The position numbers and the translations under genes were made by a program. The notes beneath the pieces are model-generated. The model was not told the DNA's origin, made no database searches, and saw only the letters and a list, made by a program, of their open reading frames with translations. DNA of 64,000 nucleotides from positions 8,410-72,409 of the IMG/VR virus record IMGVR_UViG_2767802758_000001, one strand, 5' to 3'. Shown one piece after another: positions 40,466 through 63,657 of the stretch. How positions within the stretch are numbered: the first letter of the stretch is position 1; each line of letters opens with the position of its first letter. The DNA comes from a virus (taxonomy: Duplodnaviria > Caudoviricetes).

Positions 40466-40544
<79 letters not shown>

Positions 40545-41211: not shown

Positions 41212-41330
41212 TTTTGTCTCACGCGCCAGGGACGAGCTTGAACCCCCGATGGTTTTGCCATAGAAAGAGCGTTGAAAATACATTTCTTTTTGTGCTCTGC
41301 TGTAATAGCTATTTTATTTTGGATGATGTC

Positions 41331-41633: not shown

Positions 41634-42323
41634 TTATGACCGGCGATAGTATTTCCGGTGTTCCACCATGGTGCCGATAATTTCAATGGCATGCTGGTCG
41701 CTGCGAATGGACGGGTAGTCTTCGTTCAGCGGCACCAGTTCAAAGATTTCTTGCCCGCCTTCATCAATGCACAGGAGGCGGTATTTCTTGAAAGTGGCTT
41801 CTTCTTCACTATTTTTGGCGACGACATAATCACCGGGGCGGGGCGTGAGCTCGCAATCAACAATAATTCGGTCGCCTTCCTTGAAGTCCGGCAACATGGA
41901 GTCGCCCTTGATCTGCAGAGCAAAAGAGCGCTCGGACAGGCACAGATCTGTCAGCAGATACTCTACCTCTTCAAACGTGAAGTTCTGGCCCGGGTCTCGA
42001 AAGACACCTGCCTGCACATAGTTGAGCAGGGGAATGCGCCGCTCGCCCATCATGGCGTTTTGCACGTTGGAGTCAAAATCACGCTTGGCACCATAGCCAT
42101 AGCCTTGTTGATCCAGGCTATGTGCTTCCAGACCCACTTCTTTTTCTATGGCGCGCGCCACTCGTTCGCCAATGCTGCGCCCGCCGTTGTAGGTGGATGA
42201 CAGGTACTGGGCCAACTGCGCCCGTGTGCGCCCAATAGAGCGCGCAAAGTCAGCCGCGTTGCCGTGAGCGCGGTCTTCAATTAGGCGTTGCAGGTTTCTG
42301 CGGCGAATCGAGTAAATATCCAT
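41634..42323 (-). CDS. cI: CI repressor with S24 autopeptidase (RecA-cleavable)
   Basis: N-terminal HTH; VQAG cleavage site; KGDSM (Ser) and ATFKKY (Lys). Confidence 0.95.
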   Translation of the reverse strand: MDIYSIRRRNLQRLIEDRAHGNAADFARSIGRTRAQLAQYLSSTYNGGRSIGERVARAIEKEVGLEAHSLDQQGYGYGAKRDFDSNVQNAMMGERRIPLLNYVQAGVFRDPGQNFTFEEVEYLLTDLCLSERSFALQIKGDSMLPDFKEGDRIIVDCELTPRPGDYVVAKNSEEEATFKKYRLLCIDEGGQEIFELVPLNEDYPSIRSDQHAIEIIGTMVEHRKYYRRS

Positions 42324-42347
42324 ATTCAACATTAAAACAAGAAAAAA

Positions 42348-42385
42348 CTAAACATTGGTTTAGATATTTCTTTTCTTTACGTTTA
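42348..42385. promoter_or_regulatory. Operator region of element 2
   Basis: Palindrome CTAAAC-ATTG-GTTTAG and near-palindrome TTCTTTACGTTTAGAA; TTAGATATTTCT recurs inverted at 42586-42597. Confidence 0.55.
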
Positions 42386-42405
42386 GAACTATCTATACTC
42401 AACAC

Positions 42406-42597
42406 ATGAACGCTAAACACATCATCGAAGAAATGGGCGGTCGCCGAGCCGTACTGCGTATCACAGGCTTGAGCAAAGGCCGCATATCTCAATGGGAGAA
42501 GGCCGGTGTCATTCCTCGCGTTTGGCAACTGGTGTTCCATCACATGAACCCGGTGGTGCCTGCCCCAGCACCCAAAGAAAGTTCTAGAAATATCTAA
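42406..42597 (+). CDS. cro: Cro-like protein
   Basis: IIEEMGGRRAVLRITGLSKGRISQWEKAGVIP. Confidence 0.85.
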   Translation: MNAKHIIEEMGGRRAVLRITGLSKGRISQWEKAGVIPRVWQLVFHHMNPVVPAPAPKESSRNI

Positions 42598-43033
42598 GCA
42601 TTCAAGATGGGGTTGGCTTGTAAGCCGAACCTGACAGATCGGCTGTGTCATGGGGTGACACAGTTCTTGTGCCCTTGGGGCATTGCCTATTAATCGGATG
42701 TTCTTGGCCTGTTGGGGTCAGGGGTCCTGCTGCGCGCCACATGTTTGCAAACAGATCTCAGGCGTGTGGCATTTCATTCCGGGATGCCATGAAAAAACAT
42801 ATTGAAAGCCACTGGCCGCAGGCGATGGGGTCGCCGCCCAAGCAGCTTGTGTCAGAACCAATCGCTGTACAGCCTTTGCCGTTGCTCAGGCAGGTCGTGC
42901 CGAAGGGCCAAGCCCTTGTCCGACTGGTTTATCGCCCGGGTATGCCGTCTTGTCACCCAGCCCGACAGAAACTGGGAGTGCAGCCTGTGTGGGCTTGGGC
43001 ACAGCAGAACGTAAAACAGGATGGAGCGTGCCG

Positions 43034-43831
43034 ATGAGCAATATGCCGTGGTTTCGTGCCTACACCGAGATGGTGGATGACGAGAAGTTGCGTCTACTGG
43101 CTTTTGAGGACAGATGGCACTACGTCGCCTTGCTGTGTCTGAAGGGGCAGGGCGTGCTCGACAGTGGGGACACCCTGATGCTGCGCAAGGTGGCCGTCAA
43201 GCTGGGTCTGGACCTGCGCACCTTGGATGATGTCGTGCGTCGTTTAAGCGAAGTGGGCTTGATCGACCCAGAGACTTTGCAGCCCTTGGCGTGGGACAAG
43301 CGTCAGATGAAATCTGACAGCAGCGCAGAGCGCGTGGCGCGCTTTCGGGCCAGAAAAAAGCAGGAACAAGACGGTAAGGAGGGCAGTAGCGCGCCCGTAA
43401 CGTTACCGAAACGGCCAAGTAACGCGCTAGATAAAGAGACAGATAAAGAAGGAGAGACAGATACAGAAAAAGATAAAGAAAAAACAAATGCGCGGCGCAA
43501 GGCTCCGGCGCTGGAGTTCTCTGCCTGGCCTGCTGAGCCCAGTGCAGAAGTGGTCGCGGATTATCTGCGCCATCGTCGCGAGATCAAAGCTCCCTTGACG
43601 CAAACCGCCTTGAATCGCCTGGGCGCCGAGGCCCACCGGGCGTTGGAGATGGGTTACAGCGTCGATGACTTTCTGGCCGAGTGCATGTTGCGTGGCTGGC
43701 GTGGGGGCAAGGCTAGTTGGCTGGAAGGGCGTAATGAGTCCCGTGCAGGGCAAGCATCGGGTTTTGACCCCCTGGCCTATGTGAACCGTCATCGGCAACG
43801 CGAGGAGATAGACGATGTCATCGATGTCTGA
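43034..43831 (+). CDS. Replication initiator (O-like, DnaT-like C-terminus)
   Basis: MPWFRAYTEMVDDEKL N-terminus, charged repeat linker, CMLRGWRG. Confidence 0.85.
   Translation: MSNMPWFRAYTEMVDDEKLRLLAFEDRWHYVALLCLKGQGVLDSGDTLMLRKVAVKLGLDLRTLDDVVRRLSEVGLIDPETLQPLAWDKRQMKSDSSAERVARFRARKKQEQDGKEGSSAPVTLPKRPSNALDKETDKEGETDTEKDKEKTNARRKAPALEFSAWPAEPSAEVVADYLRHRREIKAPLTQTALNRLGAEAHRALEMGYSVDDFLAECMLRGWRGGKASWLEGRNESRAGQASGFDPLAYVNRHRQREEIDDVIDV
43397..43487 (+). repeat. Origin-like repeats inside the element 2 initiator
   Basis: GTAACGTTAC palindrome, second GTAACG, and three AGATAAAGA copies in a purine-rich tract. Confidence 0.55.
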
Positions 43832-44522
43832 TTTTTCTAACCCCTGGCTGCTGCGTCACACCAAGCTGGAAGGCATCAGCCTGATGGACCATTTGTACAA
43901 CCGGCTCAATGGCATTTATCCCAACAAATTCCGCTCCAACTTCCGCGACAAGCAAGCCATTGAAGACTGGAAGCAAGCCTGGGCCGAGGCCTTTGATGAA
44001 GAGGGCGTCTCGCCCACGGATGTGGCACTGGGCATCAAGAATTGTCGCCGCATGTTCGATTGGCCACCCAGCTTGCCGGAGTTCTTGCGGGCCTGCCGTC
44101 CTCAACTGGAACCAGAGACTGCCTTTTTTCAGGCCGTGCGTGGCATGCAGGCACGGGTGCGAGGAGAAATGGGCGAGTGGTCGCACCCGGCGATCTATTA
44201 CGCGGCAATCAGTATCGGGCAGTTTGATTTGCTGAATCAGGCTTACACGCAGCTGGAGCAGCGTTGGCACAAAGTTCTGGGCGATCAACTGGCCAAAGGG
44301 CAATGGCCAGAAATCCCGCCGCCCCGATTGGCTTTGTCTTCACCACAAGACAGAGAGCAAGGCCGTCGGGAAGGACAGCGACGCGTACGCGATCTGGCCC
44401 AGGTTATTTCAGGCGACAACAACAAGGACCCGCGAGTCTGGGCGAACCGGATCTTGGCGCACCCCCAAGAGCGTTCTCTGGCGGTGCTGAAAATGGCTAA
44501 AGCCGCCTTGGGCAAGGAGTGA
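43815..44522 (+). CDS. Replication protein P-like (helicase loader)
   Basis: WKQAWAEAF...WPPSLPEFLRACRP; WSHPAIY. Confidence 0.8.
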   Translation: MSSMSDFSNPWLLRHTKLEGISLMDHLYNRLNGIYPNKFRSNFRDKQAIEDWKQAWAEAFDEEGVSPTDVALGIKNCRRMFDWPPSLPEFLRACRPQLEPETAFFQAVRGMQARVRGEMGEWSHPAIYYAAISIGQFDLLNQAYTQLEQRWHKVLGDQLAKGQWPEIPPPRLALSSPQDREQGRREGQRRVRDLAQVISGDNNKDPRVWANRILAHPQERSLAVLKMAKAALGKE

Positions 44523-44525
44523 GTT

Positions 44526-44849
44526 ATGGATCTGACAACACCGCTTCATCAAAAAGTGCGTAGGCCTATCACCGGAACACCGGCCCATCGCTACAAGGAG
44601 CTACGGGTTTTGCAGCAGCGCGGACAGATCAGGCAATTGGTACAGCAACCATCCTGGAGCCTGGTGCCCCGGTTTTTCAGCCACCTGATGCCTGCCAGCA
44701 GGATTTGCTACATCGCGGACTTTGCCTACACGGATAGCAGGAGCGGCCGTCGCATTGTGGAGGTAGGCCGCCATACACACAGTCTGTTTCAAGGTATCAA
44801 ACGTGTCTTGCTGACCTGGATGCACGGCATCACCGTCCAGCGTGCCTGA
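44526..44849 (+). CDS. Degenerate DUF1064 homolog, catalytic motif lost
   Basis: Aligns to 11695-12030 (YIADFAYTD, HGITV) but EDAKG is replaced by EVGRH. Confidence 0.7.
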   Translation: MDLTTPLHQKVRRPITGTPAHRYKELRVLQQRGQIRQLVQQPSWSLVPRFFSHLMPASRICYIADFAYTDSRSGRRIVEVGRHTHSLFQGIKRVLLTWMHGITVQRA

Positions 44850-44862
44850 AGGAGGAGTACAC

Positions 44863-45243
44863 ATGACAATCAAAGCAGAAAACAAACAGGGCCTAAGCGG
44901 CGATGATCTGCTCTGGAACTGGGCCCGCTGGTGCTGGTCCGGGCAGACAGTGGGCAATATGGAGCGCTACGTTCCCTGGCAAGAGGACTTTCGGCCCATA
45001 CACCAGGACCATGCTCTGGCGGTGGATGCCTTGTACCAGCGCCTGCCGCACTATCAAGCCATGGTCATACAGGCCGAGTACCCACGCAAGAATGCCCAGT
45101 ACGGCCATCTGACCGCCAGCGAACGTCAGGCCACAGCCCGTTTGTGGATCAAAAAGGTGACTGGTGCGGTCCTTCGGGATGAAGACTACCGCCGCCATTT
45201 GATGGATTTCAGAATCACAGTCGAGAAGGAGATTTTGCGGTGA
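44863..45243 (+). CDS. Q-like late gene regulator
   Basis: Close paralog of 12180-12539; GGAGGAG RBS. Confidence 0.65.
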   Translation: MTIKAENKQGLSGDDLLWNWARWCWSGQTVGNMERYVPWQEDFRPIHQDHALAVDALYQRLPHYQAMVIQAEYPRKNAQYGHLTASERQATARLWIKKVTGAVLRDEDYRRHLMDFRITVEKEILR

Positions 45244-45488
45244 AGTATGCAGCCGAAGTCATAGACCTGTTAGCGGCCTATCCGGGACGAGAGTTCCGCA
45301 TGATTCAGATTGTGCGGCATGTCAGCAAAGGCATGGATCTGTCCACTGCACAACGCAACGCCATGCGCGAAGGCGTCAAGCGCGTGCTGGTGCAACTGCA
45401 GGATTCAGGCCAGGTGGACAAGATCAAAGAGGGCGAAACCTCTGCCTTTTACGCGTGGCGTTGCAGTCTGCAACATGGCCCGCTATGA
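45240..45488 (+). CDS. Winged-HTH protein
   Basis: Paralog of 12536-12844 (MKYAAEVIDLLAAYP). Confidence 0.7.
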   Translation: MKYAAEVIDLLAAYPGREFRMIQIVRHVSKGMDLSTAQRNAMREGVKRVLVQLQDSGQVDKIKEGETSAFYAWRCSLQHGPL

Positions 45489-45546
45489 ATCTGCAAGCAC
45501 AATTGCAATAATGGGCGTGCAAAGTTGCGTCCAATGCAAACGAAAC

Positions 45547-45580
45547 AACCCCGAGCAAGAAATTGCGGCGGGGTTTTTTT
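45547..45580 (+). terminator. tR'-like terminator before the tail operon
   Basis: AACCCCG...CGGGGTT followed by T run. Confidence 0.6.
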
Positions 45581-45658
45581 ATGCCTGGTCACAGCAACCT
45601 ATAGTCGTCGATTCGCCATCGGGAAGATGGCCAGGACCGTTCAGGAGAACTACACAAG

Positions 45659-46078
45659 ATGAACTTTGAACAGATCAGTAACGCCATTATTGATCGAATG
45701 GCGGCATTGACCGGGATTGCTCAGGAGTGCATCGAGTACCCCAATGCTCACGCGGCCTTTATCCCGCCGGATACGGGTGTCTGGTGCCGTTTGCTGATCA
45801 AGAATACCGACTCGGAAATGTCGGGCATGGGTGCGAAACCCTACACCCGCAAATCCGGCGAGATTCTGATCGAGTGCTTTGATCGTTTGGGTCAGGGGCG
45901 TCAGGAACTGGATCGCCTGAGCGATGCCCTGGATGAACACTTTTCCTTTTGGTCTGAGGGGGCGTTGGAATGCCTGGGCCTAAGCCATGTCGATGTAGCG
46001 GCGGATGACCCGCAAAAACGGCCACAACGAGAAGAGTTCTACCAGATCAACCTGACCGTCCCGTTCCGGGCTGGTTAA
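45659..46078 (+). CDS. Tail terminator-like protein
   Basis: IEYPNA...FIPPDTGVWCRL...YQINLTVPFRA; AGGAG RBS. Confidence 0.75.
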   Translation: MNFEQISNAIIDRMAALTGIAQECIEYPNAHAAFIPPDTGVWCRLLIKNTDSEMSGMGAKPYTRKSGEILIECFDRLGQGRQELDRLSDALDEHFSFWSEGALECLGLSHVDVAADDPQKRPQREEFYQINLTVPFRAG

Positions 46079-46146
46079 TTTTTTACCTGTTTTTTGTGCC
46101 GACCTCGCGTCGGTTTTTTTTTGCCTGCATACAGGAGAGATGCATT

Positions 46147-47070
46147 ATGAGTTCTGGCGCTAAAGTTACTAGCTACCTGGTTAAAGAAACCGTTCCCGGT
46201 GTGACTCCCGGTTCGGGCTGGCAGACGCTGCGCGTCACCGGCAACACACTGACTCCTACCCTGAACAAAGAGGAGTCCGAAGAAATCACCGATTCGCGCA
46301 TTGGTCAGGGTTCGATCGTGACCAGTATTGATATTGGTGGTGACATCACGGGCGAACTGTCCTACGGCACTTTTGACGAGCTGCTGGCGGCCGCCTTCTA
46401 CGGCGAGTGGAAAGAAAACAAGCTGAGCGTGGGCGAGACCCGCAGCACCTTCAGCGTGGCCAAAGCCTATCGTGACGTGGATGTCTACGCTCTGTTCAAG
46501 GGTGCACATGTCAGCACCTTTGCTCTGGAAGTGCTCGAGGAAGGCAAAGCCACCGTGACCTTCACGATGTCTTGCCTGGATTACGAAGACAAGGAAACTC
46601 CCTTTGCCACCGATCCGGCTGAACCCAGCCAAACCCCTTTCATGTCCTCGATCAGCGTGGGCGATGTGAAGGCCAATGGTGTGTCTCTGGCTGGCCAGGC
46701 TTGCGTGTCGGGCCTGACCCTGAACATTGACAACCAACTGCAGACCCAACGCTGCTTTGGTGCCGAGCGTTTGGGCCCCGGCGCCCTGATCGAGACCGCA
46801 GCCGCCATCACCGGCACGGTGACTCTGGCTTGGTCTCAGAAGGCGTGGGAGCTGTGGAAGAATCAGTTCAAACGCACCCCGATCGCCATTTCCTTCCCGA
46901 TCACCGACACCCTGGGCAACAAATACGAGATCGATCTGCCCGCCATTGAAGTTGATGGTGATCTGCCTAACGGTGCCAAGGGCGACATTCTGAAAGTGGA
47001 GCTGAACTTCACCGTGGCCAAGCAAACCCCCGTGCTGACTCGTAGCCCAGTTGCTGCGCCTGCACCTTAA
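46147..47070 (+). CDS. Major tail tube protein (non-contractile)
   Basis: MSSGAKVTSYLVKETVPG...ESEEITDSR; AGGAGAG RBS. Confidence 0.85.
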   Translation: MSSGAKVTSYLVKETVPGVTPGSGWQTLRVTGNTLTPTLNKEESEEITDSRIGQGSIVTSIDIGGDITGELSYGTFDELLAAAFYGEWKENKLSVGETRSTFSVAKAYRDVDVYALFKGAHVSTFALEVLEEGKATVTFTMSCLDYEDKETPFATDPAEPSQTPFMSSISVGDVKANGVSLAGQACVSGLTLNIDNQLQTQRCFGAERLGPGALIETAAAITGTVTLAWSQKAWELWKNQFKRTPIAISFPITDTLGNKYEIDLPAIEVDGDLPNGAKGDILKVELNFTVAKQTPVLTRSPVAAPAP

Positions 47071-47081
47071 GGAGCGATGGC

Positions 47082-47555
47082 ATGGCTTTGAAGATTAATC
47101 GCCTGGAATCGGTTCTGAGTCAGGAGCGGTGGGAGGATTACACCGATGACGTGTCCTTCAAACTGACCCGACTGGATACCGAGGCCTATCAAATTGCTCT
47201 GGAGCGAGTGCGACGTTTGATTGCCCGTGAAGATGCGGGCCAATCCCTGAGTTCCATTCAGGTGTCCGAGAGTGATGTCCGTGAGCATGACATTCAATGT
47301 CAATTGCTGGGTCGTTACATTATTCGGGATTGGAAAGGTCAGATTCAGGACGAGACCGGTCGTCAGGTTCCTTATTCGCCAGAGAATGCGGCGGCTTTGC
47401 TGTCTGGCGATAGCGATCTTTTTACCTGGGTTCTGTTGCACGCGGCTCAGTTGGCTAAAGAGGCTCAAGAGGAGGTCAAGGAAACAGTGGAAAAGTCCTC
47501 GCCCGGTTCCAGTGGGAAAAAGAGTGGGCCGGGCCAAGCCAAAAGCGCAAGCTGA
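47082..47555 (+). CDS. Tail assembly chaperone (gpG-like)
   Basis: Position after tail tube; IIRDWKGQIQD. Confidence 0.8.
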   Translation: MALKINRLESVLSQERWEDYTDDVSFKLTRLDTEAYQIALERVRRLIAREDAGQSLSSIQVSESDVREHDIQCQLLGRYIIRDWKGQIQDETGRQVPYSPENAAALLSGDSDLFTWVLLHAAQLAKEAQEEVKETVEKSSPGSSGKKSGPGQAKSAS

Positions 47556-47806
47556 TCTATGCGGAGCTGGGGACAGCCGTGCCGCCAGAGGCTCCCTCTG
47601 ATCCGATTACTGACCACATCATCATGACTTATCACGCGGCCAGCCGTTGTCGATCTGTCGTGATGGGGATGAGTGGTGTCTTTCCCTTGCCATTGAGTAC
47701 GGCCGATATTTCGGCCGTGGTCGGTGCTTACGGGACACCCTTGTCTCGTGCCGAGCTGGATGCTGCGGTATTGGCGATTGATGGCATGGAGCGTCAGAAG
47801 TCCTAA
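47489..47806 (+). CDS. gpT-like -1 frameshift extension of the chaperone
   Basis: Open -1 frame from GGAAAAG (47489-47495) reads GKVLARFQWEKEWAG...PLPLSTADI. Confidence 0.65.
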   Translation, partial: GKVLARFQWEKEWAGPSQKRKLIYAELGTAVPPEAPSDPITDHIIMTYHAASRCRSVVMGMSGVFPLPLSTADISAVVGAYGTPLSRAELDAAVLAIDGMERQKS

Positions 47807-49827: not shown

Positions 49828-50165
49828 TGGAAACATTTACTTGGCTGCCTGAGCAAAAGGCAATTTCTGAGGAGGTTCAGTACCGTGTGCTCTCCGCTCG
49901 TTTTGGCGACGGCTATGAGCAAAGCGCAGGTGCTGGTCTGAACCCGCGACGGTCTGGCTGGTCTTTGATGTTTGTTGGTACCGAGGAGAAGATGAAGCCT
50001 ATTCAGGAGTTCCTGGACCGCCATGGTGAGGGGCGCGCTTTTCTTTGGACTCCACCAGGTTGGAGTGAGGCTATGGTGGCGCAGTGTCGCGGTTATACCA
50101 AAAATCATAGAGGTGGCCCTGTTTGGCAACTGTCACTCAGTTTTGAACAAGGATTTCGACCATGA
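49824..50165 (+). CDS. Minor tail protein M (distal tail)
   Basis: RFGDGYEQ...GLNP...AFLWTPPG. Confidence 0.9.
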   Translation: MMETFTWLPEQKAISEEVQYRVLSARFGDGYEQSAGAGLNPRRSGWSLMFVGTEEKMKPIQEFLDRHGEGRAFLWTPPGWSEAMVAQCRGYTKNHRGGPVWQLSLSFEQGFRP

Positions 50166-50905: not shown

Positions 50906-51080
50906 GGATGAGCTTGGCCCGTCGTACTTGTCCTCTGTTAAGCAATAGTTGGCTGCTGGAGGGTGGGTACTGCGGGCTGACCTTCAACTGATAGACGAGC
51001 CAGGTTGTGGTGTTCGGGGTTTTTTGATTTTAGTAAAGCGTTGGACGACCGCCATGGGCGGTTTTTTTTATGGGTGTCGT

Positions 51081-55400: not shown

Positions 55401-57417
55401 AGAAGGCCGGATCCAGGTTAATGCTCAGCAGATCAATACGGTTGCAGGCCAGGTGGACGATCCGGCAACGGGCCTTGGTGCATTGGGTTCCTCCGTGCAA
55501 TCCATGCGTACCCAGGTCCAGCAGTTGGAGGGCGGCCTGCGCTCCTTGTCTGACTCCACCACGGCGCTATCTAGCAAGGTCGATGGTCTGGATGCAGCGC
55601 AGCGTGGTTTGGCAACGGCCGTTAATTCTTTGGGTACACGTGTGACGGCGGCCGAGGGCAAGCTTGATGCACAAGCAAGCAGCATCACGCAGTTGACGAC
55701 CAGCGTGAACAGCGCCGATGCCAAAGCCGTTGCGGCGCAAGATGCGGCAGCGGCTGCCGCCACTGCCGCTGGGGCGAAAGGGGAGGTGATCTTTGCAACA
55801 GCAGCTCCTCCGGCTGCCAAGCGCCTGGCTCAAAATCTTTGGATCGACACTAAAAACAATGCCAATACCCCCAAGCGCTGGAATGGCAGTGCCTGGGTGG
55901 CTGTAACGGATAAAGCAGTAACGGACGCGGCAGCCGCTGCGGTGGCTGCAAAAGCTGCAGCAGATGCGGCGCAAGCCACCGCGAATCAGAAAGCGGATGC
56001 CAGTGCGGTACAAGCCTTAAGCAATCGTGTCACGGCGACAGAGCAGGGTGTCAGTGCGCAGGCGCAGAGCATTACAAAGCTGGAGACTGGGCTTGATTCG
56101 TTGACAGCCCCCGCCGGCAACTTGCTGCTGGCGTCGAACGTTGAGCAAGTTCGCGCCACACCTATATATCTATTTGGACGTTACAACCTGACTGAGGACT
56201 TTGTTCCTGCCCAGGGCTATACCTTGGTGGTCTGCTATACACATAAGCCCGCAGAGGGTGATACGGAGTCGAGTATTGGTGTGTGGGCGGGGGGCAGTTC
56301 AAATCGGGTTGCTGAGCTGGAGCGCAATGTTGAACAGTCTGTTCAGGTTGTCAGGTTCACCAAGGCTGCTGCCAATGCATTGCCGCGCGAATTGCGGTTC
56401 TACTATGGGCCATTCCCGGGCAATCATGCCGGTCAGGCAACTATCCATTGGGCAGCTTTGTATCTTGGTGATGTTGTACCCACCATGCAATGGCAGCCTA
56501 ACCTAGCTGAGTTGCTAGAGGAAACTTCCGCCAATTCCTCGGCTATTCAAGGGCTGACTAGTACGGTCACACAACAAGGCAGCTCCATCTCTTCTCAAGG
56601 GCGTGATCTGACGGCTTTGCAAAATGCCGTCAATGATCCCAAGACAGGTTTGGCAGCGACAGCGGGGGCCTTGAAAGAGACCAACTCTCGGGTGACTAGC
56701 GTAGAGGGTCAGCAAGAAGCCTTGGCTACCAGTCAGCTGGTGCTGAATGCAGAAATCAAACGCCAACAGGCGGGTGAGGATGCTGACCTGGAACGAGTGC
56801 TCAATCAGTTTGATACTCAGAAAGAGCAAACCCAGATTCGTGCGTCTCTGGCTGAGTTCAAGAATGTACAGGCTGACGATAATCGTGCGCTGGCTGAGTC
56901 TATTGCGACCTTGGAAACAGGTATTGGCAGTAATTCTGCGGCGGTTGAACAGGTTGCTCGTTCTTTGACGGAGCTGGATGGCAAGATTGCTTCCAGCTGG
57001 GGAGTGAAGCTGCAGGCTAATCAAAGTGGCGTGAAGTATGTCTCCGGTGTTGGTTTGGATTTGACCAATGAATCTGGCGTCATGCAGTCGACCTTTGCTG
57101 TTTTGGCAGATCGTTTTGCCGTGATGCATGCGGCTAATGGAAATCCTACAACTGTGTTTTCTGTCCAGGGTGGAACCAGCATATTGAACTCAGCCATGAT
57201 CGGCAATGCATCGATCCAGGCAGCGAAATTTTCTGATTGGCTAGAGTCTGATGCTAGAGGGCTAGATGGTCTGCCGGTATTGAGGATTAACTTTAGAACC
57301 GGTGAGATTCTCATGAACTCGCCCACTGATGATGGAGGTCGCATGATGATTAATAACCAGCTCATTAGAGTGATTGATGCTAATGGCGTGCTACGAGTAC
57401 GGTTGGGTCTATGGTAG
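52465..57417 (+). CDS. Central tail fibre/host specificity protein J
   Basis: Lambda J-like N-terminus, FN3, CBM5/12-like repeat, coiled coils, DUF1983-like C-terminus. Confidence 0.95.
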   Translation: MRLPDYNIAAPEGAVPVSGGYSVKGHKGGKGGGGSTRTPVEDADNLHSIAYASIVDLISAGPIHGFAHENSPLRSVYLDNTPIQNEDGSLNFQDVQMEFRAGTQDQSYIPGFPAAESATAVNVELRSDQPFTRAIQNIHISGLRVGLSVRGLKQQSKKTGDITGYRVEYVIELSTDNSAFVEVLRASFDGKTTQQYSRSHRIDLPRATTGWSVRVRRLTSNASNSTISDTTYIDSITEVTDAKLRRPMSACIGLRVNAKQFQSIPSRAFDLYLRVVRVPSNYDAWTHTYSGSWDGTFKMSWTDNPAWVFYDLATNACDGLGRLLPASWLDKWALYQIAQYCDEQVPDGKGGTEPRFSCNVYLQDKAEAWRVLQDLASVFRGIAYYAQGTVLAVADMPRDSVYTYSNANVVDGIFNYAGSSLATRYTVALVSWNDETDMGRAKVEVLEDPDGIARYGVRQLELTAFGCTSQGQAQRMGRSALFTSRMETETVTFGVGLSGTLAQPGQIIEIADAHLAGRRIGGLVRSATKSEVVLDATVKVAAGDRLTVVLPDGVSQSRPIVISSQEATETQTVQVDPPFSLEPEPEAAWAISAADLSTQKYRVISVAEDGDLKYTIHAVQYVDGKHAAIDYETRVETAPVSVVPPPVQSIPGNVSITSYHVIDQGQARHNAVISWDAVPNAVAYEVQWRRDNSEWVVVPRTGSTSVEIPGIYAGAYRARVRAINVLDVSSLWGNSDLIELSGKLLAPLPVTDLRTGSIPWGIQVKWSFPADPNIIERTEIRYSSTQSFVDSLSAGGFAYPTDSFEQTGLAVTAQHFFWARLIDKNGTQGPWFPAESEPGIRGVPSVLASDYNELITPSIVEGGLGELLMGDIRDIPKIRDSVGDLTLELGELNQRVDEVNGQVQELLLADKWDSKKAYAAGSVVFANDKMYRAKKAVPAGKKITDAAYWVLIGDFASITDGLAALAVQSQETISRVESAEGRIQVNAQQINTVAGQVDDPATGLGALGSSVQSMRTQVQQLEGGLRSLSDSTTALSSKVDGLDAAQRGLATAVNSLGTRVTAAEGKLDAQASSITQLTTSVNSADAKAVAAQDAAAAAATAAGAKGEVIFATAAPPAAKRLAQNLWIDTKNNANTPKRWNGSAWVAVTDKAVTDAAAAAVAAKAAADAAQATANQKADASAVQALSNRVTATEQGVSAQAQSITKLETGLDSLTAPAGNLLLASNVEQVRATPIYLFGRYNLTEDFVPAQGYTLVVCYTHKPAEGDTESSIGVWAGGSSNRVAELERNVEQSVQVVRFTKAAANALPRELRFYYGPFPGNHAGQATIHWAALYLGDVVPTMQWQPNLAELLEETSANSSAIQGLTSTVTQQGSSISSQGRDLTALQNAVNDPKTGLAATAGALKETNSRVTSVEGQQEALATSQLVLNAEIKRQQAGEDADLERVLNQFDTQKEQTQIRASLAEFKNVQADDNRALAESIATLETGIGSNSAAVEQVARSLTELDGKIASSWGVKLQANQSGVKYVSGVGLDLTNESGVMQSTFAVLADRFAVMHAANGNPTTVFSVQGGTSILNSAMIGNASIQAAKFSDWLESDARGLDGLPVLRINFRTGEILMNSPTDDGGRMMINNQLIRVIDANGVLRVRLGLW

Positions 57418-57513
57418 AGATGTTGATAGCGGCGGGAGTGGCTGGGGTTAGTGTAGCTGGTATGACCTATTTCCTGGTCATGCCCCATAGGAACAATGGA
57501 CAAGGACTCAGAT

Positions 57514-57825
57514 ATGTCACAAGGTTTGCAGACGTTCGGGCCTGATGGCTCTATTGAGCTGGACTTGAGCACTCAGATGCTCATTCATCAAGGAACCTTT
57601 GTAAGTAACCAATCTGTGGGCTCCTTTAACGTACCGGCGTTTAGAGGAGGACGAGGCTTTGTCACAGCCATTATTACTAGCTCGGAGCCTTATTACAATT
57701 TCTTGGTTTACGTGGACATGGAGTTGGTGGTTACTAATTTGGGGTTTACTTGGCAGCATAAAGTTAGTGACCACATACAAGAGAATTACCCGAACACCTA
57801 TACATTTATCTACGGGACCTACTGA
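57514..57825 (+). CDS. Tail tip accessory protein
   Basis: MSQGLQTFGPDG motif typical of post-J genes; lower GC. Confidence 0.7.
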   Translation: MSQGLQTFGPDGSIELDLSTQMLIHQGTFVSNQSVGSFNVPAFRGGRGFVTAIITSSEPYYNFLVYVDMELVVTNLGFTWQHKVSDHIQENYPNTYTFIYGTY

Positions 57826-58508
57826 TGACAACGGCAGGTATTCAGGTTATCAGTGATCATGGTAGCCAACAGATCACCTCTGAGACGAGTAATCTTAAAC
57901 TCATTGGCCGTTTCTGGCCTCATGAGACTAAAGTATCTCCACATTGGGAAACAGCACCAGCACGGGAGTCGGTATACGAGAACAGAGTATCTTTCTTCTC
58001 TCCGTCTTACCAAGCACCCTTAGTTTTCTTCCCTAACGACCAAGGCCCTTGTTGGCTTTCTGGTATTACTGATGACGGTGGTGGTAATTTCACCGTTTAC
58101 TGGACGAGTCTGCGAATGGGTACCAGCGTAGTTACTTATGGTCCGTTTCACGGTAGTAGTGATCGGGGAATTTTGGAAGTGTATAAAAGCGATGGCTCCC
58201 TGGCTTTCTCTACAGGCAGCAAGTTCCTGAAAATTGAGAGCATTTTCGGGCCGCAGACGGAGATATCAACGTGGGTAGGGCTGGGGGCTAAGGCCGTGGC
58301 GGCGTCTACCTATCCTTCTAGTTTCTTTATCTTTCCATCTGAGCCTGCTTACTGGAACAGGTATATGGGTTGGGTGTTTATTGATAATGGGCAGTTGAAG
58401 ACAAAAGCCACAAATCTGCATTCTACGATTTCAGCTCCTATTCTCTCAGCCATGGGGCCTAACTTATCCCCACGCTACTACACAGTCATTGATATTTCAG
58501 GAATTTAA
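57825..58508 (+). CDS. Tail tip accessory protein
   Basis: AGIQVISDHG and internal GILEVYKSDGSLAFST repeat; stop/start overlap. Confidence 0.7.
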   Translation: MTTAGIQVISDHGSQQITSETSNLKLIGRFWPHETKVSPHWETAPARESVYENRVSFFSPSYQAPLVFFPNDQGPCWLSGITDDGGGNFTVYWTSLRMGTSVVTYGPFHGSSDRGILEVYKSDGSLAFSTGSKFLKIESIFGPQTEISTWVGLGAKAVAASTYPSSFFIFPSEPAYWNRYMGWVFIDNGQLKTKATNLHSTISAPILSAMGPNLSPRYYTVIDISGI

Positions 58509-58567
58509 GTGGTTCTATCAATGGAATATTTCTAGCCGCCTGAAGCGGCTTTTTTTATGGGTGTTTA

Positions 58568-58768
58568 ATGAGTATTCACAAATCCATCGCGCAGGTTTTC
58601 GAGAACAACATGGGTAATCGCCTCACGCCAGAGTTGGCTGGCGGCATGATTCGTAGCCTGATCGATATTCTCGCCACGGGTGTACAGCAGGCCGGCGATT
58701 CTCAGCAGCAGATCGAGGCGGCATCTGAGGCCCAGCTTCAGCAGGAGGGCGGCAATGGCGTGGTATGA
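58568..58768 (+). CDS. Small conserved protein preceding tail fibre
   Basis: NMGNRLTPELAGGMI motif. Confidence 0.65.
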   Translation: MSIHKSIAQVFENNMGNRLTPELAGGMIRSLIDILATGVQQAGDSQQQIEAASEAQLQQEGGNGVV

Positions 58769-60242
58769 CGCAGGGACAGTCAAGGTCACTGTAAACAGCG
58801 CAACAGTGACGGGTACCGGAACCAAGTGGTTGGCCGGTGCCCGGCAGGGTGAGGCCTTTGTCGCGCCTGATGGCCGATTGTATGAGGTGTTGAACATTGC
58901 CTCTGATACCTCCCTGACGCTGACGAAACCCTATCGCGGTGCGACGGCTACGAGCCAGCTTTATGCTTTGGCCCCCATGCAAGGGTATGTCAAGGAGCTG
59001 GCAGATCGTGCAGCAGAATTACTGCCTGCACTTTCGGACGTAGGGACAGCTGCTAAGGGGACTCTGACGACATCGACGATAGACCCTATTACAGGGCGCG
59101 TGATGCGAAATGCTGATTGGGGATTTGGGGGAGCGAATGGCGTAGCTGCAGATCAGAATATCTTGAATAACACGGTCAATGGTATTTATCGATCGGGTTC
59201 TTCGGATGAAGGCAAGCCGGACAGACATACTGGCGGGGCCTATTTCAAGATGGGTTGGGGCTCAACATATTATGGCTTGCTGTATAACTCACCAATCACT
59301 GACAAATGGCATGTCCGCACAGTCAATAATGGAGCGGCAAATAGCTGGAAAGAGTTGGTGACGGTGGGAGCATATGGCCTTGGGTCTACGGGTGCTGGTG
59401 ACGTGGCAAGTGGTGACGCCTTTCCAGGTGGAAGTCTAGATACAGCGAGCGTCGGGTCTGGCCTGTACTATGTTCCACCGGCAGAAGCTCAGGCAAGTGG
59501 TCTGCCAGACCGCGTGCTAAAGCAAGGTGTTGTTATGCACCGTCAGTCAGGTTCTGGTGGTGGGCAGATTTTCGTGTCGTTCAACGGAGATATGGTTGTC
59601 CGAGGTCGCCGCTCCAACGGCTATAACGGCTGGCGAGAAGTGCTGACTGCTGGGTTGTATGGATTCGGCGGTGCCCAAGCCGTTCCTGAGTCTTGGGATG
59701 CGCAAAGAACTGGCTGGTACTACAAATCCGGCGCTAAGCCGGCCTGGGGTGGTGGGGCGTTTTTCCTAGATCTGGCCTATAACACAACCTACGTTAATTC
59801 CGGCTTGCGGATTTCGACTGATCCGTATACAGACAATTTCTATATGAACGGTGCGGTGTCTGGACAGAAAACGTATCGGGACGCCTGCAAGCTGGTTCAT
59901 GACAAAAACATTGTAGGTGATGTGACTGTTGGGTCTGTCATAAGTCAGGGGTCTAACGTTTCTGGTCAATGGGTTAGATTCGCTGATGGCACTCAGATTT
60001 GCTACGGCAATCAAAATTTTCCCGGCAATGGATGGAATGCCAAGCCTTGGCATTATCCCTTGGCATTCATATCCAGACCTGTCGTTACTGTCAGTGGTGG
60101 AGGCGACAATGGCGGATTTGCGGCAGCGCCAATTTTGGAGATCCAAAATACAGGAGTGATCTTCAGAAAAGTGACCGGTTCAGTTGAGAACGATAACTGG
60201 GCCGACTTTTTTGTAATTGCTATTGGAAGATGGAAAGCATGA
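58755..60242 (+). CDS. Side tail fibre 1
   Basis: MAWYDAGTV anchor, GxxGLG fibre repeats, C-terminal SNxxGxWxRFADGTQIC domain. Confidence 0.9.
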   Translation: MAWYDAGTVKVTVNSATVTGTGTKWLAGARQGEAFVAPDGRLYEVLNIASDTSLTLTKPYRGATATSQLYALAPMQGYVKELADRAAELLPALSDVGTAAKGTLTTSTIDPITGRVMRNADWGFGGANGVAADQNILNNTVNGIYRSGSSDEGKPDRHTGGAYFKMGWGSTYYGLLYNSPITDKWHVRTVNNGAANSWKELVTVGAYGLGSTGAGDVASGDAFPGGSLDTASVGSGLYYVPPAEAQASGLPDRVLKQGVVMHRQSGSGGGQIFVSFNGDMVVRGRRSNGYNGWREVLTAGLYGFGGAQAVPESWDAQRTGWYYKSGAKPAWGGGAFFLDLAYNTTYVNSGLRISTDPYTDNFYMNGAVSGQKTYRDACKLVHDKNIVGDVTVGSVISQGSNVSGQWVRFADGTQICYGNQNFPGNGWNAKPWHYPLAFISRPVVTVSGGGDNGGFAAAPILEIQNTGVIFRKVTGSVENDNWADFFVIAIGRWKA

Positions 60243-60357
60243 CGTTTAAGGCTATGACAGTGGTGCCTAGTTCTAATAATTCCCGCACATGCGGGTTTTT
60301 TTTAGTGCTGATTGTTTGTAGCCAGGTGGCAAGCATACGATACATAGGAGGATAGCA

Positions 60358-61593
60358 ATGGCTTGGTATACCGCCGGAACCGTCAAGGTCGCCGCAAACA
60401 ATGCCACAGTGATCGGAACTGGGACAAAGTGGCTCTCTGGAGCGCGTCGGGGTGAGGCATTTGTGGCACCTGATGGGCAACTTTATGAAGTAAAGAACAT
60501 TGCGTCAGACACGTCGTTGACGCTGACGCAGGTTTATCGAGGTGCGTCTGCTAGTGGTCAAGCCTATGCTCTGGCCCCCATGCAGGGCTACGTCAAGGAG
60601 TTGGCAGATCGGGTCGCTTCGCTGCTTTTGCTTTCCCAAACTGAATGGGAGTGGGATTCGGTTTTAAAAAAGACGGATCTGCAAGCCGCACCTAACGATC
60701 CGACAACCTGGAAAATCCTGACCAATGGTCGAGCATTTGGCTTGGGCAGTTTTGGGGCCGCAAACTCTTATGACCAGTGGCCCTCCGAGTCGCTTGACGA
60801 TATGAATGTCCCGGCAGGGATGTATTACGTGAGCACTGCAATCACAAACAGGCCGACAACGGCACCTGGTGTTGTATGGCATCGCCAGACGGGTACGGTG
60901 GGTGCGCAGATTTATATGTCCTCAGATGGTGGTTTGGTTCACCGAGGACGCCGGTCCGGAGCATATCGAGCCTGGTTGACCACTTTGAATGTAGGCGAGT
61001 TTGGATTGGGCGGTGCTACTACTACGCCATCCAATGGCAGGGACAGTTCCAATCCATTCGGCTGGTACTACCAAACGCGGGCAGTAACCTGGGGCGGTGG
61101 TTCGTTCTTCCTTGATATGCCCTATGGCAGCAATATGAATGCGGGGCTGCGCCTTTCTACTGATCCTTATAGCGATAATTTTTATTTGAATGGTGGGGTC
61201 TCGGGCAAGAGGGAGTACCGCCCAGCCTGCAAGCTGGTTCATGACAAGAATATTGTGGGTGACGTCGCAAAGGGCTCCGTTGTGCAGTCGGGGTCAAACT
61301 CGAATGGCAATTGGATACGGCTTGCTAATGGCACTCAAATTTGTCGCGGGCAAGTCACTTTTAGCGGTAATAGCTGGAAGCCCACCAGTCCGGTGATCGC
61401 TTACCCCATGGCATTTAATGCACCCCCTACGACGGTGATCCAGCCCTTGTCTGATGGCTCTGGATACTATGCCGTTCCTCAAATGGGGATGGGGTCTGGG
61501 TCGGGGAGTTTCTTTATTCGCGACACCCGCGGCATTGTGGATACCGGCACGAGTGCCGCCGTTGATTATGTAGCAATTGGAGTATGGAAATAA
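60358..61593 (+). CDS. Side tail fibre 2 (paralog)
   Basis: MAWYTAGTV anchor and the same C-terminal domain type with divergent tip. Confidence 0.9.
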   Translation: MAWYTAGTVKVAANNATVIGTGTKWLSGARRGEAFVAPDGQLYEVKNIASDTSLTLTQVYRGASASGQAYALAPMQGYVKELADRVASLLLLSQTEWEWDSVLKKTDLQAAPNDPTTWKILTNGRAFGLGSFGAANSYDQWPSESLDDMNVPAGMYYVSTAITNRPTTAPGVVWHRQTGTVGAQIYMSSDGGLVHRGRRSGAYRAWLTTLNVGEFGLGGATTTPSNGRDSSNPFGWYYQTRAVTWGGGSFFLDMPYGSNMNAGLRLSTDPYSDNFYLNGGVSGKREYRPACKLVHDKNIVGDVAKGSVVQSGSNSNGNWIRLANGTQICRGQVTFSGNSWKPTSPVIAYPMAFNAPPTTVIQPLSDGSGYYAVPQMGMGSGSGSFFIRDTRGIVDTGTSAAVDYVAIGVWK

Positions 61594-62009
61594 TGAACAT
61601 CATCATCAAACTATGCCCACAGGTCCCTGTGGGTACGGCCCAAAAGCTTAATCTTGAGCGTTTGGGCACCATCCTGAAAATTAATGAGCAAGAGCTTGGC
61701 TTGTCTTTTCTGTCTCCTGGCGACGTCCTGCCAGCCGGCGCAATCGAGCATCCCTTGTTGAAGCAGGCCACGGTTACGCGTCATGCTGACAGCATCGAGA
61801 TTGATGGTCTGCTTTTTCATATCGCAGCGGATCAAACAGCTCCGGCAGCGTGTTTTCCTGAACCGGTCGTGATTAGTGAGGATGGTCTGGTTGTATTACC
61901 CGAACAGTGCCCACCGCCAGTACCTGCTCCAGAACTGCCGCCTGAAACTGATTTTGAGACACATCCTGAGTCTGACATGAAGGAGGAAATCGATGCAGAT
62001 CAACATTGA
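61593..62009 (+). CDS. Tail fibre-associated protein
   Basis: LSPGDVLPAGAI motif; TAATG overlap with fibre 2. Confidence 0.65.
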   Translation: MNIIIKLCPQVPVGTAQKLNLERLGTILKINEQELGLSFLSPGDVLPAGAIEHPLLKQATVTRHADSIEIDGLLFHIAADQTAPAACFPEPVVISEDGLVVLPEQCPPPVPAPELPPETDFETHPESDMKEEIDADQH

Positions 62010-62418
62010 TAGCCGCAAGGTCGTGACTGCAGCGGCTCAGCTGCAGATCTATAAGGAAAATAAGATGACAGCTTTATCGGCAGCTTGCCGGGCAGCTATC
62101 AAGGAGGGATTTGAGTCCACGGTCCTGGGGGAGCTGCACCGATATCCCAGCAATGAAACTGATCAACTGAACCTGGCCAGTAGCCTGGCTGATTCTTTGC
62201 TGCCTGGCCTTGCTGCTGATTGGTCCACACCGTTTTGGTGCGCGAACCAGGCCGACGATTGGGCTATGCGTATGCATACGGCGGAGCAGATTCAGCAGTT
62301 GGGGCGAGAGGCCAAGGCACGTATTGTGAGCCTGATGCAGCGCAATGCGCTGCTGGCCGAGCAAGTTCAGCAAGCAAGCAGTAAAGCCGAAGTGGATCAG
62401 TTTGAGTGGTCTGTGTAG
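61993..62418 (+). CDS. DUF4376-like tail fibre chaperone
   Basis: GFESTVLGELHRYPSNETDQLNL...HTAEQIQQLG. Confidence 0.7.
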   Translation: MQINIDSRKVVTAAAQLQIYKENKMTALSAACRAAIKEGFESTVLGELHRYPSNETDQLNLASSLADSLLPGLAADWSTPFWCANQADDWAMRMHTAEQIQQLGREAKARIVSLMQRNALLAEQVQQASSKAEVDQFEWSV

Positions 62419-62538
62419 TCCGCATCGCAGTTTCGTGAATGTTGTTGCCCCGGCCCGCTTGAGCGGGTTTTTTTATGTCTGCTGCATCCATAAAAAGGAT
62501 GCAGCAGACAGGGCAAGTTTGATTAAGGAGAAGGGCCC

Positions 62539-62763
62539 GTGCTGAATAACGACGCCGCTCACCTACCCATAAGCACCGGTTCGGCCCTGCTTATTTATGG
62601 TTGGACCATGCAGGATTTTGTGCTGACTTTATGGGCGGCTTATGTGGTGATTTTGATCGTGACCAAGCTGCCCGAGTTCATTCGGGCGGCTGCGCGGATT
62701 GTGGGTGGGGTGCGGCAGGCCTGGCGCCAGCTCAAGGAGTGGAAGCATGGATCTGAAGACTAA
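62539..62763 (+). CDS. Holin
   Basis: Near-identical paralog of 35785-36009. Confidence 0.7.
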   Translation: MLNNDAAHLPISTGSALLIYGWTMQDFVLTLWAAYVVILIVTKLPEFIRAAARIVGGVRQAWRQLKEWKHGSED

Positions 62764-63205
62764 GTGGGGGGCGGGGGTGATCTCGGCGGCGATTGCTTTG
62801 GTTGCCGCTTGGGAAGGGCGCTCTTTGATCGCCTATGTGGACCCGGTGGGCATCCCGACCATTTGCGACGGCTACACGCAAGGGGTCAAGCTGGGGGATG
62901 TGGCCAGCCCGGCACATTGTGACGCTTTGACCGAGCAGGAGGTGCGTCGTGCTTTGGCTGTGGTGGATCGCTCTGTGAGCTATCCCTTGCCCGACGAAGT
63001 CCGTGTGGCACTGAGCAGCTTTGTCTACAACGTGGGGGCCGGGGCGTTTGCCAATTCCACTTTGCTGCGCAAGCTACGGGTTCAGGATATAGCCGGAGCA
63101 TGTCGGGAGCTAGACCGTTGGGTTTATGCCGGTGGCCGCAAATTGCGGGGGCTGGAGCGGCGGCGTCAGGCAGAGAGGCAGCTATGTCTATCAAGTCTGC
63201 TTTAG
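62747..63205 (+). CDS. Endolysin (GH24)
   Basis: WEGRSLIAYVDPVGIPTICDG. Confidence 0.95.
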   Translation: MDLKTKWGAGVISAAIALVAAWEGRSLIAYVDPVGIPTICDGYTQGVKLGDVASPAHCDALTEQEVRRALAVVDRSVSYPLPDEVRVALSSFVYNVGAGAFANSTLLRKLRVQDIAGACRELDRWVYAGGRKLRGLERRRQAERQLCLSSLL

Positions 63206-63657
63206 CAGGGGCTGCTGTTCTGGCAGCCCTTTTTTTATGGGGGGCGCTGTATGGCCAGGGGCAGTATCGCAAGGGCTATGAGCTGGCTCGCGCAGAGACC
63301 AGGGCGGCGCAGTTGCAGGCGGAAGTCCGTGCGCGCCTGATAGAACAACGATTACAAAAGGAGGTGGAGGATGTTCGAGTTACGTATCAAACACAGTTGG
63401 ATGCGGCCCAGCGTGCTGCTGTGGCTGCTCGCGCCGATCTTGACGGCTTGCGCGGCAAGCTCGCCGCCGCCAATGATCGTGTCGCCGCTCAGGCTGCCCG
63501 AGCCGGACAAACGCTGGATGCAAACGCCCGAATTGCCAGCGAGCTGCGCCACGTGGTCGGCCTGTGCGCAGAACGATATACAGAAATGGCAAGCGTTGCT
63601 GACGGATACAGGAGCGCTTTAGGTGGTTTGCAGGGGTACGTATTTAATGTGCGGTAA
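63184..63657 (+). CDS. rz: i-spanin (Rz)
   Basis: N-terminal TM plus coiled coil. Confidence 0.8.
   Translation: MSIKSALAGAAVLAALFLWGALYGQGQYRKGYELARAETRAAQLQAEVRARLIEQRLQKEVEDVRVTYQTQLDAAQRAAVAARADLDGLRGKLAAANDRVAAQAARAGQTLDANARIASELRHVVGLCAERYTEMASVADGYRSALGGLQGYVFNVR
63401..63622 (+). CDS. rz1: o-spanin (Rz1), embedded in Rz
   Basis: Lipobox LTAC; Pro-rich; CATWSAC. Confidence 0.8.
   Translation: MRPSVLLWLLAPILTACAASSPPPMIVSPLRLPEPDKRWMQTPELPASCATWSACAQNDIQKWQALLTDTGAL

Follow-up and report, generated by a model that had tools for sequence, protein, structure and literature searches.

A headless lambdoid element at a fixed chromosomal locus of Alcaligenes, a candidate SOS-inducible F-type tailocin

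A lambdoid tail and lysis operon without a head

In this work, we focus on a headless lambdoid element of the genus Alcaligenes, and on what its genes, their conservation and their exchange tell of its nature. The stretch of DNA analysed (the window) is 64,000 nucleotides long and consists of bases 8410-72409 of a 72,409-bp IMG/VR provirus record; its sequence matches the Alcaligenes chromosome CP021641.1 (GCA_002242175.1) at about 1.515-1.543 Mb. Two phage-derived units lie in it, namely a prophage (prophage 1, about 6-40.3 kb), which is complete, with genes for terminase, portal and capsid, a tail of its own and a lysis set, and the headless element (41634-63657) to which this text is devoted. 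The original prediction had read the latter as a candidate undescribed F-type tailocin, in which a late promoter region leads straight into a tail operon running from the tail terminator to J, then into two fibres and a lysis cassette. Gene content was called by PHROGs and Pfam across 41634-63657, with the true starts of the tube, K, O, endolysin and Rz genes placed downstream of the longest-ORF (open reading frame) starts, and both the content and the order are borne out. The dN/dS values given with the genes are Nei-Gojobori estimates, expressed as the ratio of the mean pairwise values, with genes trimmed to their called starts.

The tail operon lies entirely on the plus strand. It opens with the tail terminator (45659-46078; phrog_179, E 1.5e-28; dN/dS 0.12) and the tail tube, a Phage_tube_2 protein (46147-47070; PF18906, E 2e-45; dN/dS 0.02). 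The tail assembly chaperones follow, with G at 47082-47555 (phrog_313; 72-99% identity among copies) and the T part in an overlapping -1 frame at 47459-47806 (phrog_1189). A candidate slippage run for the G/T pair, GGGAAAAAG, is found at 47514-47522; a canonical X XXY YYZ heptamer in frame for G/GT was not found there, only GGG AAA AAG. The tape measure protein (TMP) has 609 aa (47998-49827; TMP PHROGs; dN/dS 0.12), and it is followed by the tail tip genes M (49824-50165), L (50162-50905; dN/dS 0.04), K (51081-51863; dN/dS 0.05) and I (51878-52465; dN/dS 0.12), which together match phrog_14, 18, 30 and 32, and by the J-like central fibre or hub of 1650 aa (52465-57417; phrog_31; dN/dS 0.13). 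Between J and the fibres, two genes for proteins of 109 aa and 227 aa (57496-58508) match unnamed PHROGs only and have no Pfam match. The fibre region itself (58755-62418; phrog_2712, 2398 and 1348) consists of two paralogous side fibre genes with a shared 5' repeat (58755-60242 and 60358-61593; dN/dS 0.06-0.14) and of two small fibre-associated genes (61593-62009 and 61993-62418). The set needed for a non-contractile tail is thus complete, with terminator, tube, chaperones, TMP, distal tail protein, hub, and central and side fibres.

A lysis set is linked to this tail set, on the same strand. It comprises a putative holin of 74 aa (62539-62763), assigned by its position and hydrophobic sequence, an endolysin of the Phage_lysozyme family (62747-63205; PF00959; dN/dS 0.075) and an Rz-like spanin with a DUF2514 domain (63184-63657; dN/dS 0.33); the PHROGs of this cassette are phrog_7 and phrog_312. 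The predicted absence of terminase, portal, capsid and head-tail adaptors holds as well, since no head, packaging, terminase-like or neck family of PHROGs or Pfam has a match in 41634-63657. Integrase and excisionase genes were likewise not found within the element by PHROGs and Pfam. The head and packaging module, the integrase and the att sites of a functional temperate lambdoid prophage are all missing from it, and so are the own integrase, att sites and packaging-hijack genes that go with the phage satellites, whether phage-inducible chromosomal islands (PICI), P4-like elements or capsid-forming PICI.

The early region and the late control socket

Upstream of the tail operon, the element keeps the early region of a lambdoid phage. 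Its leftmost gene encodes a cI-type repressor on the minus strand (41634-42332; phrog_4; dN/dS 0.03). The claim that this repressor has a full S24 autocleavage domain stood up to alignment with lambda cI (3bdn, E 1.3e-11), in which the Ala-Gly cleavage site (A108-G109), the catalytic Ser (S145) and the Lys (K182/183) are all aligned. A divergent control region (42333-42405) separates it from the rightward genes and contains inverted repeats, the CTAAAC/GTTTAG palindromes, which are candidate operators. All the following genes are on the plus strand. They encode a Cro-like small DNA-binding protein (42406-42597; phrog_8008/409; conserved at 95-100%; dN/dS 0.04), an O-like replication initiator with internal direct repeats at 43424-43480 (43034-43831; phrog_678; dN/dS 0.065), a lambda P-like helicase loader (43815-44522; phrog_109, PF06992; dN/dS 0.045) and a DUF1064, resolvase-like (rusA-like) protein (44526-44849), which occurs as mosaic alleles with 69-98% identity among copies. 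The early region ends with two candidate regulators of the late genes, a 126-aa protein (44863-45243; dN/dS 0.03), possibly an antiterminator, and an 82-aa candidate late activator (45240-45488; phrog_20616; dN/dS 0.04) with a putative DNA-binding role. The Atlas matches of the latter are nameless clusters and a weak DsrD lead.

The last early gene stops at 45488 and the tail terminator gene starts at 45659, which leaves a gap of 170 bp. This gap holds what we call the late control socket (45492-45586, plus strand), made of a promoter region with TGCAA repeats followed by a terminator. Four TGCAA repeats are found at 45492-45539, the sole such cluster in the window, and the hairpin with its T-run follows at about 45549-45586 (-20.1 kcal/mol, z -2.8). 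Five further terminator-like hairpins lie inside the late operon. As a separate observation, GC hairpins with T-runs placed directly before start codons (hairpin-TTTTTTTATGG...ATG) recur in both phage units of the window, at 13157-13193, 22221-22257, 26503-26539, 33717-33753, 51049-51087, 58536-58574 and 62454-62492.

Prophage 1 carries homologues of both late regulators (window 12180-12844), which are 74% (126-aa protein) and 55% (82-aa protein) identical to those of the element and which sit before a repeat-plus-terminator unit of their own (AAACCGGGACA x3, hairpin) and before its head genes. Cross-activation between prophage 1 and the headless element is conceivable.

The headless state across genomes

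The headless architecture is not a particularity of the window. A scan of IMG/VR with the tube protein gave 16 contigs at 98-99% identity, and in all of those that reach upstream (14/14) the early genes run into the terminator gene through the same headless junction. These headless IMG/VR proviruses are 20-29 kb long, with a CheckV completeness of 42-54%. The junction is also present in A. phenolicus DSM 16503 and in genome G160, which belongs to another Alcaligenes species, and its sequence is conserved save for a few substitutions and one 3-4-nt indel. Because the junction sequence is near-identical in all copies, it points to a single ancestral deletion of the head genes behind all of them.

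The chromosomal site is equally constant. The locus keeps one fixed position in CP021641.1, A. phenolicus and G160, with tRNA-Met and its adjoining backbone on one side and AAA_18, META, DUF533 and periplasmic binding protein (PBP) genes on the other. Among 14 Alcaligenes species genomes, the F-type element occupies the locus in two (A. phenolicus and G160), and the site is empty in at least seven, where the interval between the M48 and DUF533 genes is 4.6-7 kb. The synteny check attached to the prediction thus came out in its favour, as three or more species-level lineages have the headless architecture at one and the same chromosomal site. Since the element sits at the same locus in different strains and neither an integrase nor att sites were found, it is chromosomally fixed and non-mobile.

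The check attached to the prediction also asked that these tail genes should never be found with head genes. Within the lineage this is what we see, as the element is headless in the 14 contigs with the junction, in A. phenolicus and in G160, and its nearest headed relatives share at most 83% tube identity. The relatives at 54-83% tube identity come from four IMG/VR contigs and six family-level genomes, and all of them are complete headed prophages, with TerS, TerL, portal, head-morphogenesis protein, scaffold, major capsid protein, Ad1, Hc1 and Neck1 immediately before the terminator gene. Above 83% tube identity, the searches of IMG/VR, of 185,579 species genomes and of INPHARED found no phage with a head. 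What decay looks like can be seen in genome G012, where a relative (L048/L049, G012:C11:324920-325595) has an in-frame TAA in its tube gene and no adjoining tail tip genes, and which stands as a contrast case to the intact headless elements.

One tail gene departs from its neighbours. The tail terminator shares 54% identity with its counterpart in the nearest headed relative, as against 82% for the tube of the same relative, and its distance from outgroups consistently exceeds that of this counterpart by about 15 points. This divergence could reflect a released constraint on the face that joins the head, or a mosaic origin of the gene.

Selection, divergence and inheritance

The prediction had all the reading frames intact and proposed purifying selection on the genes as a check, and the comparison of copies agrees with it on both counts. 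No internal stop was found in 23 genes, with 6-13 copies each. The mean dS of the element genes ranges from 0.15 to 1.4, and dN/dS is 0.02-0.2 for nearly all of them, which indicates strong purifying selection across the element. The highest values are those of the resolvase-like gene (0.41, with its mosaic alleles) and of Rz (0.33), within which a second reading frame is probably embedded.

The tube and terminator genes have a dS of about 0.2 within the headless clade, with dN/dS of 0.02-0.12. Because both of them flank the shared junction and no headed phage exceeds 83% tube identity, their synonymous divergence most simply arose after the loss of the head.

The comparison with host genes shows how the element has been inherited. 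Between A. phenolicus and G160, dS is 0.30 for the host flank, 0.31 for the early genes and 0.22 for terminator plus tube, which fits a co-divergence of the element with its host. The window genome gives another picture: against A. phenolicus, the host flank is at 0.83, the early genes at 0.47 and terminator plus tube at 0.23; against G160, the corresponding values are 0.78, 0.32 and 0.25. In the window lineage, the element thus has a lower dS than the host flank, and it would therefore have been exchanged between lineages by homologous recombination. An exchange of this kind has been described for tailocin loci elsewhere, for instance in PMC13195805.

Conservation is not even along the element. 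The minimum identity among copies is 98% for the tube, 80% for J, 75% for I and 64% for the first fibre, and the two fibres themselves differ in this respect (64-99% for the first, 95-100% for the second). Some contigs carry a different G/T/TMP/M set, and the tip module of G160 is wholly different, with a 1068-aa TMP and a 2318-aa J-like protein. By these comparisons, the structural core is near-invariant and the receptor-facing parts vary.

A contractile allele on the same chassis

The locus also has a second tail type. In genome G007 (L077:8212-19919, L078:1-3200) and in the IMG/VR contigs L079-L082, the same chassis at the same locus carries a headless contractile, R-type cassette. The chassis proteins of this R allele are 97-100% identical to those of the window; in L082, for example, cI, O and P are 100% identical to their window counterparts, the two late regulators 99%, and the neighbouring host-backbone gene 100%. 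The cassette is 12.5 kb long and encodes a terminator-like protein, sheath, tube, chaperone, TMP, baseplate hub, wedge, J-like and I-like proteins and a fibre, with no head genes in it. Its genes are intact in five copies with dN/dS of 0.02-0.12, and its relatives at 72-78% sheath identity are headed.

The borders of the exchange are sharp. No difference separates the F and R alleles across the TGCAA repeats, the hairpin and the T-run; directly behind the T-run they part, and they rejoin at the start of the holin gene, with common sequence from 62546 onward. The R fibre shares 62% identity with fibre 2 of the F type over part of its length. As judged from these alignments, the conserved chassis consists of the early region and the lysis cassette, and the tail cassette between the terminator hairpin and the holin gene appears exchangeable. 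The presence of two unrelated headless tail types in one regulatory and lysis frame has hardly any other explanation than selection for particles made of a tail only.

In G007, the R allele further carries a 336-aa tyrosine recombinase gene (L078:907-1917, minus strand; Phage_integrase, E 2e-22) between the fibre region and the holin gene, which could encode a fibre-switching enzyme or be a relic.

Comparison with known tailocins and phages

Pyocins are controlled by PrtR/PrtN, are sited between trpE and trpG, and form a cluster without replication genes. In gene order, the element resembles the F2-type pyocin of P. aeruginosa (PMC13455828; PDB 25vf), with which it shares a lambda-like order from tube to J, duplicated fibre/chaperone sets and linked lysis genes, as well as tail tip proteins homologous to PyoF5-F10. 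The likeness is borne by sequence matches to PDB entries, the best of which, for L, M, J and TMP, are the pyocin proteins, ahead of lambda: L matches the F2-pyocin hub protein (BHP) at E 3e-69 and lambda L at 2e-33, J matches the F2-pyocin fibre 25vf_A at E 6e-252 and lambda J at 1e-124, and M matches the F2-pyocin distal tail protein 25vf_6 at E 7.5e-15 and lambda M at 6.3e-12. The TMP (609 aa) matches that of the F2 pyocin (25vf_5, 612 aa) at E 2e-14 and the TMP gp18 of 9occ_M at 9.2e-07. By the lambda rule of about 0.15 nm per residue, such a TMP would set a tail of roughly 90 nm, close in length to the F2 pyocin. The sole PDB sequence match of the tube at E <= 0.01 is 8xan_B, with no detectable match to the F2-pyocin tube chain, and the tail terminator has no match among PDB sequences.

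Some differences set the element apart from F pyocins. The F2 pyocin cluster covers the homologues from V to J, and alpD, which lies elsewhere, codes for its terminator protein (PMC13455828), whereas in the element the terminator gene heads the operon. The element also has cI/cro-like control and O/P replication genes, so that the PrtR/PrtN control and the lack of replication genes that would make it an F pyocin in the narrow sense are not what is found in it.

The closest architectural precedent is rhizoviticin, an F-type tailocin of Allorhizobium vitis VAR03-1 that has been proven by experiment. As the relevant parts of its description give it (PMC10811719), rhizoviticin is encoded in a 22.7-kb headless region beside a tRNA gene; the region includes a LexA-like repressor and retained replication-type genes that are needed for expression, and it is read there as an early stage of the evolution from prophage to tailocin. 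Both systems measure about 22 kb, lie near a tRNA gene, have a repressor of the LexA/cI type and carry early and replication genes upstream of a non-contractile tail and lysis genes, with no working integrase. They differ in their hosts, Alphaproteobacteria for rhizoviticin and Betaproteobacteria for the element, and in their early genes, as the former has, according to the same parts of the paper, an integrase remnant and a DnaA-HTH/DnaB-type replication set, whereas the latter has no integrase trace and lambda O/P-type genes. An R-type allele on the same chassis is present in Alcaligenes, and none is reported for rhizoviticin in those parts of its description. Finally, rhizoviticin is a proven tailocin and the Alcaligenes element a candidate.

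Among phages, homologous terminator-tube-G-T-TMP-M-L-K-I-J modules are found in the temperate siphoviruses of the phiPSA1 and MR15 type and in headed prophages of Alcaligenaceae (L018, L050-L055). The tube of the element is 63% identical to those of the phiPSA1/MR15-type Pseudomonas phages and 54-83% identical to those of the headed Alcaligenaceae prophages. In every one of these, the genes for TerS, TerL, portal, scaffold, capsid, adaptors and Neck1 come immediately before the terminator gene, whereas the element has none of them.

A full-text search of the literature found no paper on an Alcaligenes tailocin. Of the prediction of an undescribed F-type tailocin, the tailocin part is supported and the novelty is reduced, since the layout is shared by rhizoviticin (PMC10811719).

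What the element probably is, and how it would work

Taken together, these observations make it probable that the element is a chromosomally fixed descendant of a lambdoid siphovirus, devoid of head, packaging and neck genes, of integrase and of att sites, and that it now serves as an SOS-inducible F-type tailocin locus. The argument rests on the fact that the headless set has been kept intact under selection in several lineages, with additional support from the contractile allele of the chassis and from the F2-pyocin matches of the tip proteins. It would very probably be a known kind of weapon, the F-type tailocin, in a genus for which we found no earlier report of one.

The working of such a locus can be outlined from its anatomy. 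DNA damage would activate RecA, and the cI-type repressor, in which the motifs for it are present, would then cleave itself at Ala108-Gly109. Rightward early transcription would follow and make Cro, O/P and the 126-aa and 82-aa late regulators. O and P, whose genes are intact and under purifying selection, may fire an origin in place and so amplify the locus. The late regulators would switch on a promoter in the TGCAA-repeat region, and the RNA polymerase would read through the hairpin at about 45549-45586 and through the five hairpins of the operon. Terminator, tube, G/GT, TMP, M, L, K, I, J and the two side fibres would then assemble into flexible headless tails, and holin, endolysin and spanin would lyse the producer and release the particles. 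Judging from the homology to the F2 pyocin and from the diversification of the fibres, these particles would kill related Alcaligenes that carry a matching surface receptor.

Several points weigh against this interpretation. The retained cro, O, P and resolvase-like genes are lacking in classical pyocin loci, and the element could on this ground be viewed as a defective prophage. In the functional chain, the putative holin matches no family in PHROGs or Pfam, and the late-regulator roles of the 126-aa and 82-aa proteins are those of candidates. The 126-aa protein matches no family in PHROGs or Pfam, and nothing in the PDB by Foldseek (E <= 0.001) or by sequence-profile search; its AlphaFold2 (AF2) model (pLDDT 84.7) has, by VIA-align, a weak likeness to sigma region 4 (Z 6.4) and to Q21/AlpA (Z 4.7), so that we put forward its role as a Q-like antiterminator as a hypothesis. 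As for selection, the pairwise dN/dS values are not independent of each other and recombination is evident, which makes them descriptive rather than a formal test. The lower divergence of the element than of its host flank in the window lineage implies that it is younger there than the flank and that vertical descent does not account for all of its inheritance; recombination could have brought in some of the selective signal.

Such points lead naturally to the alternatives. If one deletion took the head genes of a prophage and the rest had simply not yet degraded, the element would be an inert remnant, as the single junction shared by all headless copies and the persistence of early phage genes might suggest. 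We hold this to be very improbable, because the copies stand at dS 0.15-1.4 and yet have no stops in 23 genes and dN/dS of 0.02-0.2 for nearly all of them, because the element is found in lineages whose host flanks differ at dS 0.3-0.8, and because the truly decayed relative in G012 does have a stop in its tube gene. The mosaic modules (rusA-like alleles at 69-98%, G at 72-99%, different TMP and tip modules), the element dS below that of the host in the window lineage, and the regulator and lysis homologues of the adjoining prophage 1 would all agree with a recombination reservoir or immunity island, kept for the immunity given by its repressor or for its lysis genes, in which the constraint on the tail comes from repeated replacement by functional phages. 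However, no such headed phage above 83% tube identity was found in IMG/VR, the 185,579 species genomes or INPHARED; the tube and terminator genes that adjoin the junction have diverged inside the headless clade (dS about 0.2) at dN/dS 0.02-0.12; and two different tail types both arrive headless. This makes the reservoir unlikely, if somewhat less so than the remnant.

There is finally the case of a helper-dependent element, whose tails would join the capsids of a co-resident phage or which would be a tail-encoding satellite packaged by a helper. It would account for the replication genes, which are kept and under selection, and the window element does lie beside a complete prophage with late regulators 55-74% identical to its own. 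The A. phenolicus element, however, has no adjoining prophage, with host genes directly left of tRNA-Met; no integrase, excisionase, att repeat or terminase-related gene was found, and the chromosomal site is fixed; the neck and adaptor genes for joining a head are all gone; and the tail terminator is unusually divergent from those of headed relatives (54%, against 82% for the tube). We thus give helper dependence as little credence as the inert remnant, and we retain the tailocin as the probable reading.

It is possible, though we propose this only tentatively, that the early region is no relic and belongs to a selected, exchangeable expression platform, with an SOS repressor, an O/P origin amplifying in place, late regulators, the socket at its left and the lysis genes, led by the holin, at its right. 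Whole tail cassettes, flexible or contractile, would be swapped by recombination between these two borders, and a single species would in this way maintain a polymorphism of killing machines at one locus.

If active, the element would be a betaproteobacterial F-type tailocin whose tip proteins are related to those of the structurally solved F2 pyocin, and the second independent case, after rhizoviticin, of a tailocin that keeps a phage early region. To this, the population data add purifying selection on the replication and regulatory genes as well. With its F-type, R-type and empty-site alleles, the locus offers a natural series for the study of how prophages are domesticated into weapons and how the specificity of killing changes hands. 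Alcaligenes faecalis, occasionally an opportunist, is common in soil, wastewater and gut communities; in view of this ecology, strain-specific killing particles would be possible typing or biocontrol tools.

Boundaries of the element and neighbouring genes

The predicted absence of an integrase is true of the element itself, and the neighbourhood does contain one. The right end of prophage 1 is made of five leftward genes and a tyrosine integrase gene (39326-40309), about 1.3 kb left of the repressor gene of the element. We rejected this integrase as a part of the element, as the two are separated by tRNA-Met and host backbone that are also present in the empty-site genome. This left backbone, which lies outside the element (40466-41597) and is found in all occupied genomes, comprises the tRNA-Met gene itself (40466-40544, minus strand; ARAGORN) and a stretch of small genes of about 1.05 kb between it and the element, with two genes on the minus strand (40561-40746 and 40891-41283) and one small reading frame on the plus strand (41214-41597).

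The empty-site genome G159 matches window 40466-41596 at 86% nucleotide identity and resumes in the AAA_18 gene. By this alignment, the inserted DNA spans from about 41597 to just before AAA_18, and the coordinates of the original prediction are essentially exact. No att-like direct repeats of at least 8 bp were found between the two element junctions, nor does the record contain the tRNA-Met 3' end a second time. In A. phenolicus DSM 16503 (L022, L040), tRNA-Met and then SnoaL-like, M48 peptidase, GNAT and DedA genes lie to the left of the element, and AAA_18, META/DUF4377, DUF533 and PBP genes to its right, with no integrase found at either side; the right-hand host genes of the CP021641.1 chromosome are the same as those of A. 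phenolicus.

Beyond the spanin gene, a 107-aa gene (63677-64000, minus strand, and beyond, L062:13320-14275) lies before the host gene AAA_18. It is missing in A. phenolicus and present in the window lineage and in G160.

For prophage 1, the record yielded no far att site. The 3' side of tRNA-Met is an insertion hot spot, occupied by prophage 1 in the window, by a different integrase in G005, by a different prophage in G160 and by nothing in A. phenolicus. The five leftward genes of prophage 1 (36938-39225, minus strand), which sit between its lysis genes and its integrase and one of which has an SRAP domain by Pfam, are cargo of prophage 1 and not of the element.

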